From a virus, in UHGV virus genome UHGV-0074586: a DNA stretch of 11,801 nt; one strand, 5' to 3'. Made by a program: the position numbers and the translations under genes. Positions within the stretch are counted from its first letter, which is position 1; every line of letters begins with the position of its first letter. Shown here in pieces: positions 4,550 to 10,954 of the stretch. The notes beneath the pieces were generated by a model. That model worked only from the letters and a program-made list of their open reading frames with translations. It did not search any database and was not told the origin of the DNA.

Positions 4550-4653
4550 TGACCATCTACATCACTGAGCTAATAGCAGGGTTATCGTTACTAATGGTTC
4601 TTACTGTATATATTATTAAGTATATTCTTTATGCGAATAAAAAAACTAATTGA
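4549..4653 (+). CDS. 34-aa hydrophobic single-pass peptide, translationally coupled to the helicase stop
   Basis: ATG 4549 overlaps the helicase TGA (4547..4549) with AGGAGG at 4538..4543. Product MTIYITELIAGLSLLMVLTVYIIKYILYANKKTN. Caveat: AT-rich DNA yields hydrophobic ORFs by chance. Confidence 0.3.
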   Translation: MTIYITELIAGLSLLMVLTVYIIKYILYANKKTN

Positions 4654-5242
4654 TCACGATGAGCTTCTGTCAACATTATCATATGACTCAGAAACAGGAA
4701 TATTTAAATGGCTAAAAACAAATTCAGTAGTAAGAGTAAAAGGTAGTATTGCTGGAGGTGTTAGTGGTGGTTATATATGCATTAGCATAAATAATGTTTT
4801 GTATTATGCGCATAGACTTGCTTGGTTCTATGTATACAAAAAATGGCCTCCTAAGTTTATTGATCATGTAAATGGGAACAGACTTGACAATAGGATTTCA
4901 AATCTAAGACTGGCAACAGAAGAGCAGAATGCAAGAAACATTGTAGGGAATAGGTTAAACACATCCGGTGCGATTGGAGTGTCTTGGTATAAGCCAACTG
5001 GCAGGTGGAAGTCTTATGTTGGTTATAAAAATAAGACAATATCGTTAGGGTATTTCGATAGCAAAGAAGATGCAGCATTCATAGCAGCACTAGCAAGAAA
5101 GAAACTATATGGAACTTATGCGAGTAAAGCACTTAATTGCGAGCATGAGCTTTTATCTCAATTTAATAATGATGAGGATAAACTTGCGGAATATCTTAAG
5201 GAAAAATCTAAAAGGACTCGAAAGCGTGTTAAAAAAAGATAA
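4631..5242 (+). CDS. HNH homing-type endonuclease with C-terminal AP2 DNA-binding domain
   Basis: HNH motif (YYAHRLAWF...IDHVNGNRLDNRISNLRLATEEQNARN) and AP2-like segment (GVSWYKPTGRWKSYVGYKNKTISLGYFDSKEDAAFIAA). The gene sits in a visibly AT-rich island unlike its neighbours. Confidence 0.85.
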   Translation: MRIKKLIDHDELLSTLSYDSETGIFKWLKTNSVVRVKGSIAGGVSGGYICISINNVLYYAHRLAWFYVYKKWPPKFIDHVNGNRLDNRISNLRLATEEQNARNIVGNRLNTSGAIGVSWYKPTGRWKSYVGYKNKTISLGYFDSKEDAAFIAALARKKLYGTYASKALNCEHELLSQFNNDEDKLAEYLKEKSKRTRKRVKKR

Positions 5243-5274
5243 AGGCCTGCTGGTAATCGCAGGCCTTTTTATTT
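5241..5274 (+). terminator. rho-independent terminator after the HNH gene
   Basis: Perfect 8-bp GC-rich stem AGGCCTGC/GCAGGCCT with an 8-nt loop, then TTTTTATTT. An A-run upstream makes it potentially bidirectional. Confidence 0.7.
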
Positions 5275-5290
5275 GGGGGAGAGGGAAGTC

Positions 5291-5731
5291 ATGAAAAAAC
5301 TAACCTTTGAAATTCGATCTCCGGCACATCAGCAAAACGCTATTCACGCAGTACAGCAAATCCTTCCAGACCCAACCAAGCCAATCGTAGTGATCATTCA
5401 GGAGCGCAACCGCAGCTTAGACCAGAATCGGAAGCTTTGGGCTTGCCTTGGTGACGTCTCTCGTCAGGTTGAATGGCATGGTCGCTGGCTGGATGCAGAA
5501 AGCTGGAAGTGCGTTTTTACAGCAGCATTAAAGCAGCAGGATGTTGTTCCTAACCTTGCCGGGAATGGCTTTGTGGTAATAGGCCAGTCAACCAGCAGGA
5601 TGCGTGTAAGCGAATTTGCGGAGCTATTAGAGCTTATACAGGCATTCGGTACAGAGCGTGGCGTTAAGTGGTCAGACGAAGCGCGACTGGCTCTGGAGTG
5701 GAAAGCGAGATGGGGAGACAGGGCGGCATGA
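5291..5731 (+). CDS. ninB: NinB (Orf-family recombination mediator)
   Basis: 146 aa from ATG 5291 ([34 protein letters not shown]...), essentially lambda NinB as I recall it. Confidence 0.9.
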
Positions 5732-5910
5732 GACGACAGCGACGAAGCATCACCGACATCATCTGTGAAAACTGCAAATACCTTCCAACGAAACGCTCCA
5801 GAAATAAACGCAAGCCAATCCCAAAAGAATCTGACGTAAAAACCTTCAACTACACGGCTCACCTGTGGGATATCCGGTGGCTTAGAGAACGTGCGAGGAA
5901 AACAAGGTGA
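5728..5910 (+). CDS. ninE: NinE
   Basis: 60 aa ([52 protein letters not shown]...). ATGA overlap with the ninB stop. Confidence 0.8.
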
Positions 5911-6077
5911 TTGACCCAAATCGAAGTTACGAACAAGAAAGCGTCGAGCGGGCTTTAACGTGCGCTAACTGCGGTCAGAAGCTGCATGTGCTGGAAGTTC
6001 ACGTGTGTGAGCACTGCTGCGCAGAACTGATGGGCGATCCGAATAGCTCAATGTACGAGGAAGAAGACGATGAGTGA
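5907..6077 (+). CDS. ninF: NinF (small CxxC...CxxC protein)
   Basis: GTG start overlapping the ninE stop (GTGA). 56 aa ([55 protein letters not shown]). Below the ORF-track cutoff. Confidence 0.7.
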
Positions 6078-6792
6078 GTTAATGAATGGCAATGCCATCA
6101 AAATGACAAGCATTGAAATCGCTGAGTTGGTGGGTAAGCGTCATGACAATGTGAAACGTACCATCGAAACGCTGGCTAAAAATGGTGTTATCCGGCTTCC
6201 TCAAATTGAGGTTTCCGAAAGAATCAATAACTTAGGGTTCAATGTTCAGTACGAGCATTACGTCTTCGAGGGCGAACAAGGTAAGCGAGACAGTATTGTC
6301 GTTGTTGCCCAGTTGTCGCCAGAGTTCACCGCTCGCCTTGTTGACCGCTGGCGAGAGCTTGAAGAAACTGCGGTTAATATCCCCAAAACGCTACCAGAAG
6401 CGTTGCGCCTTGCTGCTGATCTTGCTGAGCAGAAAATGCAACTGGAAAACCAGCTCGCAATTGCCGCACCTAAAGTTGAGTTTGCCGATCGCGTTGGCGA
6501 GGCCAGCGGAATTTTGATTGGAAACTTTGCAAAGGTTGTTGGTATTGGTCCAAACAAACTGTTTGCGTGGATGCGCGATCACAAAATCCTTATTGCTTCA
6601 GGTTCCCGGCGCAATGTGCCAATGCAGGAATATATGGATCGCGGCTATTTCACAGTGAAAGAAACAGCGGTCAACACAAATCACGGAATACAGATATCGT
6701 TCACCACAAAAATCACCGGGCGTGGTCAACAGTGGCTGACCAGAAAGTTGCTCGATAACGGAATGCTGAAAGTAACAGGGGAGGCTGCTTAA
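6070..6792 (+). CDS. Rha-family regulatory protein with KilA-C/ANT-type C-terminal domain (antirepressor-like)
   Basis: 240 aa. N-terminal segment (IKMTSIEIAELVGKRHDNVKRTIETL) resembles the Rha domain; C-terminal half (NFAKVVGIGPNKLFAWMRDHKIL...EYMDRGYFTVKE...TTKITGRGQQWL) resembles the antirepressor C-terminal domain. Assigned from memory. Confidence 0.65.
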   Translation: MSELMNGNAIKMTSIEIAELVGKRHDNVKRTIETLAKNGVIRLPQIEVSERINNLGFNVQYEHYVFEGEQGKRDSIVVVAQLSPEFTARLVDRWRELEETAVNIPKTLPEALRLAADLAEQKMQLENQLAIAAPKVEFADRVGEASGILIGNFAKVVGIGPNKLFAWMRDHKILIASGSRRNVPMQEYMDRGYFTVKETAVNTNHGIQISFTTKITGRGQQWLTRKLLDNGMLKVTGEAA

Positions 6793-7082
6793 TGGCTAAC
6801 CTACGCAAAGAAGCACGCGGCAGAGAATGCCAGGTACGTATTTACGGCGTATGCAATGGCAACCCTGAAACTACAGTTCTGGCACATTACCGGATGGCTG
6901 GAATTTGCGGAACGGGAATGAAGCCTGACGACCTGATCGGCGCATGGGCTTGTAGCGCGTGTCACGATGAAATCGACCGACGCACCCATAACCTCGACAA
7001 CAAAGACGCCAGACTTTACCACCTCGAAGGCGTAATCAGGACGCAGGCGATACTGCTGAAGGAGGGGAAGATTAAGCCATGA
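6792..7082 (+). CDS. small Cys/His-rich protein of the kind found upstream of rusA in lambdoid nin regions (DUF1364-like)
   Basis: 96 aa with a C-x8-C...H...C...CxxCH pattern. TAATG overlap with the upstream stop and ATGA overlap with rusA. Family name from memory. Confidence 0.55.
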   Translation: MANLRKEARGRECQVRIYGVCNGNPETTVLAHYRMAGICGTGMKPDDLIGAWACSACHDEIDRRTHNLDNKDARLYHLEGVIRTQAILLKEGKIKP

Positions 7083-7441
7083 ACGAATATCAGTTTGTGC
7101 TTCCATACCCACCGTCGCTGAACACCTACTGGCGAAGACGGGGAAGCCAATACTACATCAGCGATAAAGGCCAGAAATACCGAAAAGACGTTCAGCAAAT
7201 CATCCGCCAACTCAAGTTAGACATTTTCACCAAATCACGACTCCGCATCAAAGTCATCGCAGACGTTCCAGACTCCCGCCGCCGCGACCTCGATAACATC
7301 CTGAAAGGTTTACTCGATTCCCTTATCCACGCCGGATTTGCGGAAGACGACGAGCAATTCGATGACATTCGCGTAATTCGTGGTGTGAAAGTACCAGGCG
7401 GACGGCTTGGAATAAAAATCACCGAACTGGAGAACGCATGA
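7079..7441 (+). CDS. rusA: RusA-family Holliday junction resolvase
   Basis: 120 aa, colinear with E. coli RusA as I recall it, including the RRRDLDN catalytic motif and GGRLGIKITEL C-terminus. Confidence 0.88.
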   Translation: MNEYQFVLPYPPSLNTYWRRRGSQYYISDKGQKYRKDVQQIIRQLKLDIFTKSRLRIKVIADVPDSRRRDLDNILKGLLDSLIHAGFAEDDEQFDDIRVIRGVKVPGGRLGIKITELENA

Positions 7442-7626
7442 ACGCCACAATTCAAACGATACCAGAGCTTCTTATCCAGACACGAGGCAATCAGACCGAA
7501 GTGGCGAGGATGCTTTCCTGCGCAAGAGGAACAGTGCTCAAGTACAACCGAGACAGCAAAGGCGAGCTTCACGTAATAGTTAACGGCGTCCTGATGGTCA
7601 AACAGGGCAAGAGGGGAAGACGATGA
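7438..7626 (+). CDS. ninH: NinH
   Basis: 62 aa with the ...GNQTEVARMLSCARGTVLKY...VIVNGVLMV core matching lambda NinH. ATGA overlaps on both sides. Confidence 0.8.
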   Translation: MNATIQTIPELLIQTRGNQTEVARMLSCARGTVLKYNRDSKGELHVIVNGVLMVKQGKRGRR

Positions 7627-8111
7627 GCATAAGAGAACTAAACCTCACCAAAGAGCAGCACGAGTGGCTGAATGGCTGGCTTGAACTGTGGGGCGCATGG
7701 GTTTATTCAGGTCGTCTGGAAAAGCGCATGAGCAGCGTAATAGCGAAGTTCATGGAGAGCGTAGAGCCGGGAAGAGTTATGACAAGGCCAATGTGCAATG
7801 ATGATGATGGAATGTTGATTTCTCAGGTCGTCGATTCCGTCATGTACATTGACAAGAAAGCCTTTGGAATCCTCCTCAGCTACTACGCTCATGGCTCTTC
7901 CAAGCACGCCATTGCATCTTACTATCATCGCGTCGCAAGACCTCGCAAGATGTTATGCCGTGGCGGCGGGCGCATTCAAAAACCATCGCTCGCAACCTGT
8001 CGACGGGAAGTTGACGAAATCCTTAATGCCTCGTTGTTTATGATTTACCCGGTTCTGGATAGTGCGTTTAAAAACCGGAAACGTGTAGAGAAAATTAAAC
8101 ATGTAGCATAG
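7623..8111 (+). CDS. Q-like late-gene antiterminator (non-lambda Q type)
   Basis: 162 aa, last gene before the lysis region. WGAW...RPMCNDDDGMLIS...YYAHG motifs resemble the Q proteins of 933W/82-type phages, not lambda Q. Assigned from memory and position. Confidence 0.65.
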   Translation: MSIRELNLTKEQHEWLNGWLELWGAWVYSGRLEKRMSSVIAKFMESVEPGRVMTRPMCNDDDGMLISQVVDSVMYIDKKAFGILLSYYAHGSSKHAIASYYHRVARPRKMLCRGGGRIQKPSLATCRREVDEILNASLFMIYPVLDSAFKNRKRVEKIKHVA

Positions 8112-8117
8112 AACGTG

Positions 8118-8198
8118 TTGACATCATTGAGCAAATGAGCAACACTATTGGCATAAGCTGCCGTTAGTGACTCTTAAGTTGCAACGGTGGCTTTTTTT
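8118..8198 (+). promoter_or_regulatory. candidate late promoter (consensus -35 TTGACA at 8118..8123) followed by a hairpin plus T7 run (8157..8198)
   Basis: Perfect TTGACA 7 nt after the Q stop; no convincing -10. Stem GCTGCCGTT/AACGGTGGC (two G-U pairs, 17-nt loop) is followed by TTTTTTT ending 5 nt before tRNA 1. Confidence 0.3.
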
Positions 8199-8202
8199 AT
8201 TT

Positions 8203-8277
8203 GGGTCAGTCGTATAAAGGTCATTACTGAAGGCTGTTAACCTTCTTATCGTGGTTCGAGTCCACGCTGTCCCGCCA
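8203..8277 (+). tRNA. tRNA-Asn (anticodon GUU), phage-encoded
   Basis: Hand-folded cloverleaf: 7-bp acceptor stem with one T-T mismatch, perfect anticodon stem GAAGG/CCTTC with loop CTGTTAA, perfect T-arm CGTGG-TTCGAGT-CCACG, encoded CCA. The D-stem has only 3 pairs. Confidence 0.6.
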
Positions 8278-8282
8278 AATAT

Positions 8283-8358
8283 GCTGGTTTAGCTCCAATG
8301 GTAGAGCAGTCGCCTTGTAAGCGAATGGGTAGCGGTTCAAGTCCGTTAACCAGCACCA
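8283..8358 (+). tRNA. tRNA-Thr (anticodon UGU), phage-encoded
   Basis: Hand-folded cloverleaf: perfect acceptor stem GCTGGTT/AACCAGC, D-arm GCTC-CAATGGTA-GAGC, anticodon loop CTTGTAA, T-arm AGCGG-TTCAAGT-CCGTT, discriminator A and CCA. Confidence 0.7.
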
Positions 8359-8519
8359 TAACTGAGCCGTAGCCACTGGCTATCCTGAATTCATCAGTGA
8401 TAGTTATGCTGCGGCCTTCTACACATGACCTTCGTGAAAGCGGGTGGTTCAATTCTGCTGCCTTCTTCACGTTAAAAGAGGAATTAGGCTTCGAAAATGC
8501 AAAAACTTGCAAAAATGAC

Positions 8520-8548
8520 TTGAAAACGAGTTTTGAAACTGCATAATT
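8520..8548 (+). promoter_or_regulatory. sigma70-like promoter (TTGAAA, 16-bp spacer, CATAAT) preceded by phased A-tracts
   Basis: -35 at 8520..8525, -10 at 8542..8547 with a TG just upstream. The preceding 40 bp holds repeated TGCAAAAA/TTGAAAAC A-tracts at roughly helical phasing (8492..8526). Confidence 0.35.
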
Positions 8549-8630
8549 CCTATATGCTCGGACGTCAAAGGCGAAAGAGCTTACCCACCAGCGAAGATGC
8601 CTTGTGCGGAGCGGTGGGAAACACATTCAA

Positions 8631-8658
8631 GCCCTTGCAGAAATGCAGGGGCTTTTTT
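8631..8658 (+). terminator. strong rho-independent terminator in the leader upstream of the insertion operon
   Basis: 9-bp stem GCCCTTGCA/TGCAGGGGC (one G-U pair) with GAAA tetraloop, then TTTTTT. It lies 30 nt upstream of the first operon ATG and inside the ORF-track 5' extension that starts at TTG 8533. Confidence 0.7.
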
Positions 8659-8688
8659 ATTGGCTCAGTGCCACCAGGTGAACACCGT

Positions 8689-9240
8689 ATGCACACGGCG
8701 ATCATTTGCGCTTCCGGACCTTCCCTCACCCACGACGACTGCCAGAAAGCCATTGGCGCTGGATTACCCGTTATTGCGGTGAATTCTTCATGGCGCGCGG
8801 TGCCGGGATGCTCTCACATTTACGCGGGTGATCTGCGCTGGTGGGATGTGAACATTCCCGCGCTGCCCGATGGCCCCGAACGCTGGTCATGTAACCGGAG
8901 AGCACACACCCGATACGGCGTGAGCCTCTTCCCGACAGATACCAGCGGCACATTCAATTCGGGGCAGAGAGCAATCCTGTTCGCTCACTGGCTGGGTGCC
9001 AGTAGCATCATCCTGCTGGGCTTCGATTGCTCAATCTCAAACGGTAGTCACTGGCACGGCGATCACACAGTCCTCGATAACCCGACAGCAGCGAACGTAA
9101 AGCGCTGGCATGGCGAGTTTGCCCGGGTTGCGGCGCAGCTGCGTGGAAGCGTCAATATCATCAACAGCAGCCGCCAGACGGCGCTTAATTGCTTTCGTCG
9201 CTTACCTCTTGAAGCTGCGATCAGCGAGGTTACATGCTGA
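8689..9240 (+). CDS. hypothetical protein with Cst/GT42-like (DUF115/MptE-like) CMP-ulosonate transferase-fold signatures
   Basis: 183 aa from ATG 8689 (AGGTGA 7 nt upstream). IICASGPSL...PVIAVNSSW and FNSGQRAILFAHWLGASSIILLGFDCSISNGSHWHGDH parallel the GNGPSL, RCN, TSG...LGY...LSGIDFY and SHYIGH motifs of Campylobacter Cst-type sialyltransferases as I recall them. Fold-level inference only. Confidence 0.45.
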   Translation: MHTAIICASGPSLTHDDCQKAIGAGLPVIAVNSSWRAVPGCSHIYAGDLRWWDVNIPALPDGPERWSCNRRAHTRYGVSLFPTDTSGTFNSGQRAILFAHWLGASSIILLGFDCSISNGSHWHGDHTVLDNPTAANVKRWHGEFARVAAQLRGSVNIINSSRQTALNCFRRLPLEAAISEVTC

Positions 9241-10175
9241 ATCCTCCGATTTACATCGATGGCATGCTGGGAATGGGAGATACCATTTACCAGCGCGCTT
9301 TCGTCAAACAACTGCCTGCTGGGACATTCATTAAGACGGCATGGCCGGAGCTTTACGAAGATCTGCCGGTGAAAGTTGTCCGAAGTGACACCACGCTCAG
9401 AACGCAGCGTAAAAATGAGTTTCGCAGTTCGGCAAAGTTTTATCCGCCGCCATCGCCACGACAGACGAAGCGAATATTTTACGGACCGTATGATCTGCGG
9501 CGCGGTTCGATATTTGATGCGATGCGACGCCAGTTCGGCGTAACGCCAGCAGCGCTTGATTTGCCATCCTTTGGCCCGTCGCAGTTTACGCACCAAAAGC
9601 CGATCGCCGTTATCCGTCCGGCAACGGTTCGTTCTGAATGGCGTAGCGACTCCCGAAACCCTGACCCCGATTACCTCCTGCGCGCATCGAGAATCCTGCG
9701 GAAACATTTCTGCGTGATTAGCGTTGCTGATTTGCAGGACGGGGAAGAGTGGCTGGTGGGCGAAGAACCAGAGGCGGATCTGAAAATGCACGCTGGCGAG
9801 CTCAATATCAAAGAGCTGATGCGCCTGGTTGAGCATGCCGCTGTCGTGGTTACGCCTGTTGGCTGGGCGCTGCCCGCTGCCATTGCGTACAAAACACCTG
9901 TTTACGTTGTCGCTGGTGGGCGCGGTGGGCATAACGCTCCCGAGATAGTCACCGATCCGGCGATGGATTTATCCCGCGTTGGCTGGGCAATCCCGGACAA
10001 TTATTGTCGCTGCGAAGCGTGGGATCACCATTGCGACAAACGCATCTTCAACTTTGATTCAAAATTCGAGACATGGCTGAATGAAGTCGTTTTATCAGGA
10101 ACTGAACAGCGGGCTGGTATTCCTCCCGGAGCTGGGCATCGGTCGTTATCCGGTTCCGGCATCACGCCCGTATGA
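9234..10175 (+). CDS. hypothetical protein with glycosyltransferase family 9 (ADP-heptose:LPS heptosyltransferase)-like fold; 3' boundary uncertain
   Basis: ATG overlaps the upstream stop (ATGCTGA). N-terminal IYIDGMLGMGDTIYQRAFVKQL and C-terminal ELNIKELMRLVEHAAVVVTPVGWALPAAIAYKTPVYVVAGG follow the GT9 pattern, but the canonical DTGPMHLAAA motif is replaced by TPVGWALPAAIA. The ORF runs 95 nt into the next gene. Confidence 0.45.
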   Translation: MLNPPIYIDGMLGMGDTIYQRAFVKQLPAGTFIKTAWPELYEDLPVKVVRSDTTLRTQRKNEFRSSAKFYPPPSPRQTKRIFYGPYDLRRGSIFDAMRRQFGVTPAALDLPSFGPSQFTHQKPIAVIRPATVRSEWRSDSRNPDPDYLLRASRILRKHFCVISVADLQDGEEWLVGEEPEADLKMHAGELNIKELMRLVEHAAVVVTPVGWALPAAIAYKTPVYVVAGGRGGHNAPEIVTDPAMDLSRVGWAIPDNYCRCEAWDHHCDKRIFNFDSKFETWLNEVVLSGTEQRAGIPPGAGHRSLSGSGITPV

Positions 10176-10690
10176 CGAGCAGTATTTCGCGAAGTATCAG
10201 CAGCTTGCCGACACCGAAACGGGCAGAGCCTTAACGCAATCCCGTATTGAGCTGGTGGCGCGCCATTTTCACGGTCCTGTTCTCGACGTTGGTATCGGTG
10301 CCGGTCAGTTCGTCTCTACCCGACCGGGAACGCTTGGGTATGACGTTAATCCGGCTGGTATCGCCTGGCTGAACGAGCGGGGCGCATTCGCTGACCTCTA
10401 GTCAGGGGCGCGCGCTGACGATGTGGGATGTCCTGGAGCACATCGACGAGCCGGAGCTGGCGGTACAGCAGGCTACAGAGTTTGTTTTCGTGTCGATCCC
10501 CATTTTTACCGATGCCGGAGACATTCTTCGCTCGCACCATTTCAGGAAGAACGAGCACATCTGGTATTTCACTGACGACGGTATTAAGCGCTGGTTTGCA
10601 GAGCAGGGCTTCGAATGCGCTGAACAGAACACAATCGAATGCCAGTTAGGGCGTAAGGGCGTCGCTTCGTACGCTTTCCGCCGCGTTTAG
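10081..10690 (+). pseudogene. class I SAM-dependent methyltransferase split by a frameshift near 10395..10402
   Basis: ORF 10081..10401 carries motif I (VLDVGIGAGQF) and an acidic beta-2 end (GYDVNP). ORF 10421..10690 in another frame carries the DVLEH motif. The frame upstream of 10421 reads ...SSQGRALTMWDVLEH, so one indel just before the TAG at 10399..10401 would restore a single protein of about 200 aa. Confidence 0.6.
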
Positions 10691-10764
10691 TCCCCTCTTA
10701 GCCCATTGCATTTGGGTTTATTCCAGTTTCGCACACATCACCCGCAAACAGGCGAGGTCAACCT

Positions 10765-10923
10765 ATGAATAGCTCTCACGGGATTTTTGAACAAACCATG
10801 AAATGGATCGCGCTATATCTGCCGTCAGTTTACGCCGGGTTATGCGCTCTGGGCATCTCAGCGCTTATCGACATACGCGCAGGGAAGCCGAAACTCTACA
10901 CCGCCACTGGCGCGCTAAATTAA
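10765..10923 (+). CDS. 52-aa small membrane protein immediately upstream of the holin gene
   Basis: GAGGT at 10754..10758 is 6 nt upstream of ATG 10765. Product MNSSHGIFEQTMKWIALYLPSVYAGLCALGISALIDIRAGKPKLYTATGALN has one predicted TM helix. Its stop coincides with the point where lambda-like sequence resumes. Confidence 0.45.
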   Translation: MNSSHGIFEQTMKWIALYLPSVYAGLCALGISALIDIRAGKPKLYTATGALN

Positions 10924-10954
10924 ATAGAGCAAATCCCCTTATTGTGGGTAAGAC

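Follow-up and report, generated by a model that had tools for sequence, protein, structure and literature searches.

Two genes lie between ninF and rusA in the DNA analysed here. What do their products do, and do they act together with the Holliday junction resolvase encoded immediately downstream? A preliminary description had taken the first for an extra antirepressor gene, one that might matter in polylysogens, and the second for the gene of a small Cys/His-rich protein working with the resolvase. The whole stretch, 11,801 nucleotides long and hereafter called the window, comes from a lambdoid phage or prophage, of which it is the early-right and lysis region. Its early part reads cI-type repressor (minus strand), cro, cII, O, a DnaB-type P and an HNH/AP2 gene; then come ninB, ninE, ninF, roi, hkbD, rusA, ninH and Q, and finally two tRNAs, some unusual genes in a small cluster, the holin and the lysozyme. 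The more unusual features of the window are found outside roi-hkbD. Relative to the nearest relatives, a frameshifting deletion of 5 bp is present in cI and another one, also of 5 bp, in a late-region methyltransferase gene, and the cluster located between Q and the holin is a rare group of three genes.

The region itself is the standard nin segment, roi - hkbD (gp66/ybcO) - rusA, of HK022-, HK97- and HK620-type lambdoid phages. Over the 1.55 kb covering ninF-roi-hkbD-rus-ninH, DNA identity amounts to 98% with HK620, HK633, HK75 and HK140, and to 94% with HK022 and HK97. In the records of HK620 and HK022, the genes of the block are annotated as ninF, roi, HkbD (HK97 gp66), rus and ninH, with ninF at the corresponding place in HK620, and annotated roi genes exist also in HK97, CUS-3, mEpX1 and mEpX2. 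At a coverage of at least 80%, the block was detected in 556 of 5426 complete E. coli genomes (about 10%). We estimate at roughly 0.8 the probability that the reading developed below is right as a whole, namely that this is a standard nin segment in which Roi is a DNA-binding protein acting with IHF, and HkbD a nuclease coupled to RusA.

The roi-hkbD-rusA block is thus an already known, widespread mosaic module, very common in E. coli prophages, and it carries little weight as a discovery, its genes having been named earlier as HK022 roi (1996), HK97 gp65-gp67, HK620 roi/hkbD/rus and K-12 DLP12 ybcO-rusA. The comparative data leave this picture unchanged. They slightly sharpen the questions of the role of Roi and its KilAC domain and of the activity of YbcO, by way of three results: the conservation of codons at an IHF core, the cassette slot that separates ninF from hkbD, and the fact that DUF1364 genes are coupled to those of non-homologous nucleases.

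Both open reading frames are present on the plus strand where the preliminary description had placed them, and the gene order that it gave is right (Table 1). Its three guesses of domains, Rha, ANT/KilAC and DUF1364, were all matched in a Pfam search. For Roi, the ANT/KilAC domain scored 113.5 bits against a cut-off of 25.3 (PF03374, E = 7.8e-33), and the N-terminal Phage_pRha domain 36.7 bits against 29.9 (PF09669, E = 6.3e-9); with the NCBIfam model TIGR02681, the score was 18 against 45.95. HkbD matched the YbcO/DUF1364 family with 150.1 bits against 29.9. These Pfam matches of the roi and hkbD products are far beyond chance. The score of RusA was 60.9 bits, for a gathering threshold of 22.8. 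None of the PADLOC defence models matched Roi, HkbD, RusA or the products of the late-region genes.

Table 1. Features of the ninF-ninH block, with positions in the window.
Feature	Position	Strand	Evidence or remark
ninF, 56 aa, left border of the variable slot	5907..6077	+	Pfam NinF PF05810, E 1.6e-12
roi, 240 aa, ATG start, DNA-binding protein Roi	6070..6792	+	PF09669 and PF03374; PHROG 63, E 1.2e-98
Rha-type domain coding region of roi (residues 12-99)	6103..6366	+	Pfam PF09669 coordinates
IHF core consensus AATCAATAACTTA inside roi (predicted site)	6222..6234	+	Sole perfect WATCAANNNNTTR match in the 11.8-kb window
ANT/KilAC domain coding region of roi (residues 126-228)	6445..6753	+	Pfam PF03374
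hkbD (HK97 gp66, YbcO family, DUF1364), 96 aa, ATG start	6792..7082	+	PF07102, E 1.8e-44
rusA, 120 aa, Holliday junction resolvase	7079..7441	+	PF05866, E 2.4e-16; PHROG 34, E 2.7e-53
ninH, 62 aa, right border of the block	7438..7626	+	Pfam Phage_NinH, E 7.9e-25

The junctions between these genes are overlaps of 8 nt for ninF/roi, 1 nt for roi/hkbD (TAATG) and 4 nt for the hkbD stop and the rusA start (ATGA, 7079-7082), and an SD-like GAGGA precedes roi at 6057-6061. Overlaps are found at every junction from ninB to Q in the window, so that the tight coupling of hkbD to rusA is, taken alone, nothing special. From 5232 to 7779, a consensus scan detected no promoter-like site; the roi-hkbD-rusA block is probably transcribed within the N-antiterminated pR delayed-early operon. 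Within roi, 5 terminator-like hairpins were counted (e.g. 6492-6508), against 3.0 ± 1.8 in shuffled sequence; as they are no commoner than in the shuffled controls, they were left uninterpreted.

HkbD and YbcO of E. coli K-12 share 71% identity, and a comparison of HkbD with the YbcO crystal structure (PDB 3G27) gave an E value of 2.6e-40. Its 96 residues include 5 cysteines and 4 histidines, and C13, C21, H32, C39, C54, C57 and H58 do not vary among 20 homologues. Conservation in the whole family is high: the best 120 database hits, which range from Escherichia to Pseudomonas, have identities of 72-100%. Two classifications in print assign the DUF1364 proteins to the zinc treble-clef / His-Me finger (HNH) nucleases and give them a catalytic histidine that is conserved (PMC4999995, PMC5714182), and YbcO/DUF1364 forms group 7 of the His-Me fingers. 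The His-Me finger pattern is found in HkbD, with the invariant H32 as the proposed catalytic histidine, together with C13, C21, C54, C57 and H58. A relaxed Pfam scan of HkbD returned no HNH family, and a search of the literature for a biochemical study of any DUF1364 protein found none. Structure models brought no independent support: the predicted structure of HkbD failed to retrieve 3G27, in spite of the 71% identity, and was discarded. On the strength of its family and of its conserved residues, HkbD would be a His-Me finger protein that binds zinc and most likely acts as a nuclease or nickase on DNA, and its synthesis would be translationally coupled to that of RusA.

The neighbourhood of DUF1364 genes was then counted in 77 loci from different species in which the downstream gene was readable. 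RusA was encoded by the next gene in 52 of them, a VRR-NUC protein in 6 and a DUF1064 protein in 1; in 2 more, rusA was separated from the DUF1364 gene by the insertion of a single HNH/AP2 or phosphatase gene. A Q-type antiterminator gene came next in about 10 loci (about 13%), with no resolvase or RusA within 3 kb, from which we conclude that RusA is not an obligatory partner. The overlap of 4 nt with the next gene was seen in 65 of the 77 loci, whichever gene followed. As far as gene order can tell, this neighbourhood supports, short of proof, a functional link of HkbD to junction-type nucleases.

An alternative is that HkbD is an independent small HNH nuclease, or else a zinc-finger DNA-binding protein, and that its position next to rusA merely reflects the conserved order of the nin genes. 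Since this order is conserved as a whole, the adjacency of hkbD and rusA is indeed weak evidence for a joint function. The same is suggested by the overlaps all along ninB-Q, which make the coupling not specific to hkbD-rusA, by the persistence of the 4-nt overlap whatever gene follows, and by the loci where a Q-type antiterminator gene is next and no resolvase is near. Two observations speak against such independence: in 7 loci deprived of RusA at this place, the next gene still encodes a nuclease fold (the VRR-NUC and DUF1064 cases), and some members of the family exist as fusions with annealing domains of the ERF or Rad52 type (PMC5714182). We consider an independent HkbD rather unlikely. 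A nuclease coupled to RusA is the reading that we retain.

That DUF1364 genes neighbour those of RusA, Q and antirepressors, and that their products play a role in recombination, was proposed in print in 2017 (PMC5714182). Co-working of HkbD with the resolvase is therefore a plausible idea already published as a hypothesis, and the gene order reported here is in line with it. The proposal that the Cys/His-rich protein works with RusA gains from the comparative gene order, and loses the argument of tight coupling, which is not specific to this pair.

We now turn to Roi. In phage HK022, Clerget and Boccard reportedly recognised roi in 1996 as the determinant of the dependence of the phage on IHF for its lytic growth. 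The HK022 protein is said to be a helix-turn-helix protein binding a site in its own gene, which adjoins an IHF site, and the Roi-DNA complex to be stabilised by IHF; its C-terminal half is reportedly similar to Ant1 and KilA of P1. Two later papers cite the HK022 work consistently with this DNA-binding and IHF account (PMC3430580, PMC4587872). The Rha family, for its part, owes its name to a growth block: Rha of phi80 and orf201 of P22 stop lytic growth in IHF-defective hosts (PMC4936722). The Roi protein of the window probably binds DNA and is built of two domains, one of the Rha type at the N-terminus, which would resemble a winged helix, and KilAC at the C-terminus. From its homology to HK022 Roi, it would bind within its own gene beside an IHF site (core at 6222-6234), and would be harmful to lytic growth in hosts lacking IHF, a phenotype like that of the Rha family.

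The sequence of the window agrees with this picture, as roi contains a predicted IHF site. The HK620 and HK022 loci have only one perfect IHF core each, located at the same roi codons as in the window. In five of the at least six roi alleles, the core AATCAATnnnTTA forms an island of identity in diverged DNA, and an island of this kind, within the diverged stretch, was observed for 7 of 8 representative alleles. At the codon level, I52, N53 and L55, which encode the core, showed no synonymous change in 7 representative sequences belonging to 5 allele types, as opposed to synonymous variation at 14 of the 15 other amino-acid-invariant codons nearby (Fisher p = 0.005, a value which is descriptive only, because the roi alleles are not independent). 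The peptide I-N-x-L-G encoded at the core is conserved as well, and the conserved IHF match could in part reflect a constraint on this peptide, or a patch of shared ancestry. An inverted repeat in roi, 6275-6287 / 6330-6342, is shared with HK022, and is a candidate Roi operator only.

Roi alleles differ essentially in one place. Residues ~22-65 form an allele-variable stretch, for which at least six N-terminal alleles were found in related loci; overall, the N-terminal half is variable and the KilAC half nearly invariant between alleles. The variable stretch is likely to be the DNA-recognition part of the protein. An AlphaFold2 model of Roi, built with 16 close homologues, had a mean pLDDT of 41 and was unusable for a fold search. 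In this low-confidence model, residues 9-69 form a strand-helix-helix-hairpin unit of the winged-helix type, and the variable stretch seems to span its second helix and its hairpin, which we take as a hint only. A sequence search among solved structures returned none related to Roi at E ≤ 0.1.

Is Roi tied to the two nucleases encoded downstream? Among 80 viral contigs with a near-identical hkbD, the slot between ninF and hkbD was filled by roi in about 40, and in the remaining half or so by an 89-aa ORF, by a 70-aa ORF or by nothing. Of the 77 species-level genome loci counted above, only 2 had roi, and ninF or ninB often abuts hkbD directly. By these counts, the slot is variable and accepts several cassettes, of which roi is one, and roi is not linked to the two nucleases. 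The possibility that roi and hkbD-rusA make up one functional unit was rejected, given that roi is missing from 75 of the 77 species-level loci, as it is from K-12 DLP12, and that other short ORFs replace it in about half of the close relatives.

More ambitious readings can be put forward for both genes, which we find quite improbable. The first starts from the AriS protein of the Listeria phage phi10403S, in which the ANT/KilAC domain alone suffices for SOS inhibition (PMC9043618). Roi would be an enterobacterial counterpart of AriS. By analogy with AriS, the allele-variable Rha-type domain and the embedded IHF site may set a phage-specific DNA targeting, and the nearly invariant KilAC half may hit a host target such as RecA/SOS. 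The second makes HkbD a dedicated accessory nuclease for junction-type nucleases, its translation staying coupled to that of RusA, VRR-NUC or DUF1064, which are nucleases of three unrelated families.

The reading that concerns Roi can be considered by itself: Roi would be a dual regulator, acting through its N-terminal domain on genes of its own phage, dampening host RecA/SOS through KilAC, and thereby tuning the induction of co-resident SOS-inducible elements. In addition to the activity of the KilAC domain of AriS, pRha-KilAC is among the AriS-like architectures listed (PMC9043618), and a near-invariant KilAC joined to a variable N-terminal half is in keeping with a host target that is conserved and DNA targets that are specific to the phage. 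AriS comes from Firmicutes, however, and the likeness is one of domain architecture, with an N-terminal AntA/AntB domain and a Gram-positive host in the case of AriS, versus pRha in Roi. Moreover, an SOS effect of Roi was not found in the literature searched, and the IHF-dependent phenotype of Roi and Rha is left unexplained. An AriS-like Roi is in our opinion very unlikely. Were it true, a phage bearing roi (~10% of complete E. coli genomes) would, once induced, modulate how co-resident prophages are induced, so that the polylysogen idea of the preliminary description might survive in a different form, by way of an AriS-like role of KilAC.

In its original form, the idea was that of an extra antirepressor. 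Classic ant genes have a regulated control region of their own, as in P22 immI or the LexA-controlled Gifsy antirepressors. The consensus scan found for roi no regulated promoter of its own outside the repressor-controlled early operon; embedded as it is in a chain of overlapping pR-operon genes, roi would therefore be expressed only after repression has already been lifted. The window contains no other ant gene to which roi would be extra, and no report of Roi binding or inactivating a prophage repressor was found in the literature searched. That Roi is a true antirepressor, which inactivates the CI-type repressors of its own or co-resident prophages and so induces them in polylysogens, is thus most unlikely: the KilAC family (PF03374) is named after Ant1/KilA of P1, PHROG 63 and RefSeq carry the label 'anti-repressor Ant', and phi80 Rha is so called in passing (PMC4936722), but such labels derive from domain names and not from assays, the characterised orthologue, HK022 Roi, figures as a DNA-binding protein in GenBank records and in PMC4587872, and Roi has no PADLOC or other functional match. 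Nothing found here supports an antirepressor function, and the gene is better described as roi, coding for a DNA-binding protein that would act with IHF.

How does the segment compare with known systems? In lambda, the order is ninF-ninG-ninH, and roi-hkbD-rusA stands at the position of ninG, one gene versus three. The earlier wording, 'in place of ninG', is thus correct by position. The junction endonuclease NinG/Rap and RusA both act on branched recombination intermediates. NinG has no detectable sequence relationship to RusA, nor to HkbD (hhalign probability 0.4%), and this same value gives no support to a derivation of HkbD as a detached His-Me domain of NinG. No NinG homologue was found within 3 kb of 160 DUF1364 loci, nor in the window, and these NinG-free loci, together with the neighbourhood described above, fit a view of hkbD + rusA as an alternative to ninG/rap. 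HkbD and RusA, which hold the NinG/Rap position, most likely function in the recombination of the phage and in processing branched DNA.

A parallel for hkbD-rusA is found in K-12 itself. The DLP12 prophage has the order ninE-ybcO-rusA, with the same 4-nt overlap between ybcO and rusA, and neither roi nor ninF. YbcO (K-12 DLP12, phage 82; PDB 3G27) shares with HkbD the length of 96 aa, all its Cys/His ligands and the proposed catalytic histidine.

For Roi, the more distant relatives are Rha of phi80 and orf201 of P22, members of the Phage_pRha family, which the N-terminal domain of Roi matches modestly; Roi differs from them in carrying a KilAC domain as well. The close ones are the roi genes of the HK022/HK97/HK620 group, found at the same position (ninF-roi-gp66-rus), in a gene order identical to that of the HK620 and HK022 records. 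Roi of the window is 87% identical over 240 aa to HK022 Roi. The divergence is confined to residues ~22-65, where the window follows the HK620 allele, and the two proteins are nearly identical from residue 66 to the C-terminus. Because residues ~22-65 differ, the DNA target of the window's Roi may differ from that of HK022 Roi. To HK620 Roi, the identity reaches 99%, with only three amino-acid differences, N2S, I5M and E190D.

Among the close viral loci bearing DUF1364 (L005-L084), the interval between ninF and hkbD, the DUF1364 gene, is filled in several ways. In about 40 of the 80 loci, its occupant is roi, with a length of about 720 bp; 18 have an 89-aa ORF without a Pfam match, and about 13 an ORF of roughly 70 aa; in the remaining ones, it is near-empty or empty. 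We conclude that in these loci the ninF-hkbD interval is a cassette slot.

DUF1364 also has other neighbours. In six Yersinia and Serratia loci (L127, L129, L137, L147, L148 and L162), the order is DUF1367, DUF1364 and a Q-type antiterminator, and RusA was not found within 3 kb. Five further loci (L085, L087, L088, L091 and L115) lie on contigs of MAG bins labelled Cellvibrionaceae, Bacillota, Collinsella and Bacteroides. Their DUF1364 genes share 76-100% identity with the protein encoded in the window, four of them reaching 94-100%, and the rusA adjoining DUF1364 in L085, L087, L088 and L091 is 98-99% identical to the Escherichia-type gene. These contigs are most likely mis-binned enterobacterial prophages.

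Other features of the window are collected in the following table.

Additional features of the window, with their positions
Feature	Position	Strand	Remarks
cI-type repressor, split	651-1362	minus	HTH ORF 1144-1362 and Peptidase_S24 ORF 651-1163
HNH_3 + AP2 gene, homing-endonuclease-like	4631-5242	+	flanked by ninB and the DnaB-type replication gene
13-nt inverted repeat in roi	6275-6287 and 6330-6342		arms 85% complementary, 42 nt apart
tRNA-Asn(GTT)	8203-8277	+	directly 3′ of Q
tRNA-Thr(TGT)	8283-8358	+	forms with tRNA-Asn(GTT) the pair directly 3′ of Q
Three-gene cluster	8533-10690	+	between Q plus tRNAs and holin
Cluster gene, 235-aa protein	within 8533-10690	+	weak, sub-threshold MptE-like/DUF115 match
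Cluster gene, SAM-dependent methyltransferase, split	10081-10690	+	ORFs of 106 aa and 89 aa

A gene comparable to the HNH/AP2 gene separates DUF1364 from rusA in a Cedecea locus (L092). Taken together, the two genes suggest a mobile endonuclease invading nin-region junctions.

Two genes of the window have suffered frameshifting deletions of exactly 5 bp. Apart from this gap, the window cI is ∼99% identical to that of HK620; the missing GTTGA (coding strand, at about 1188/1189) shifts the reading frame directly past the HTH. Possible readings are a repressor that is defective or of the clear type, a prophage in decay, or an error in the sequence. Similarly, the methyltransferase lacks ACGCC at about 10401, compared to the 99.5% identical copy of E. 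coli strain I3, which is a single 204-aa gene. No 5-bp frameshifting indel of this kind was found in the window's roi, hkbD and rusA.

The three-gene cluster is rare: among 5426 complete E. coli genomes, just 4 contain at least 80% of positions 8100-10950. Its 313-aa protein had no match in Pfam or NCBIfam, and PADLOC matched nothing in the cluster. In Stx phages, the slot where the window has this cluster is occupied by stx.

Both arms of the inverted repeat fall within conserved roi sequence, shortly 3′ of the IHF core (6222-6234). The repeat is a candidate binding site for Roi, the alternative being a chance occurrence. The repeat is common to the window and to the roi gene of HK022.
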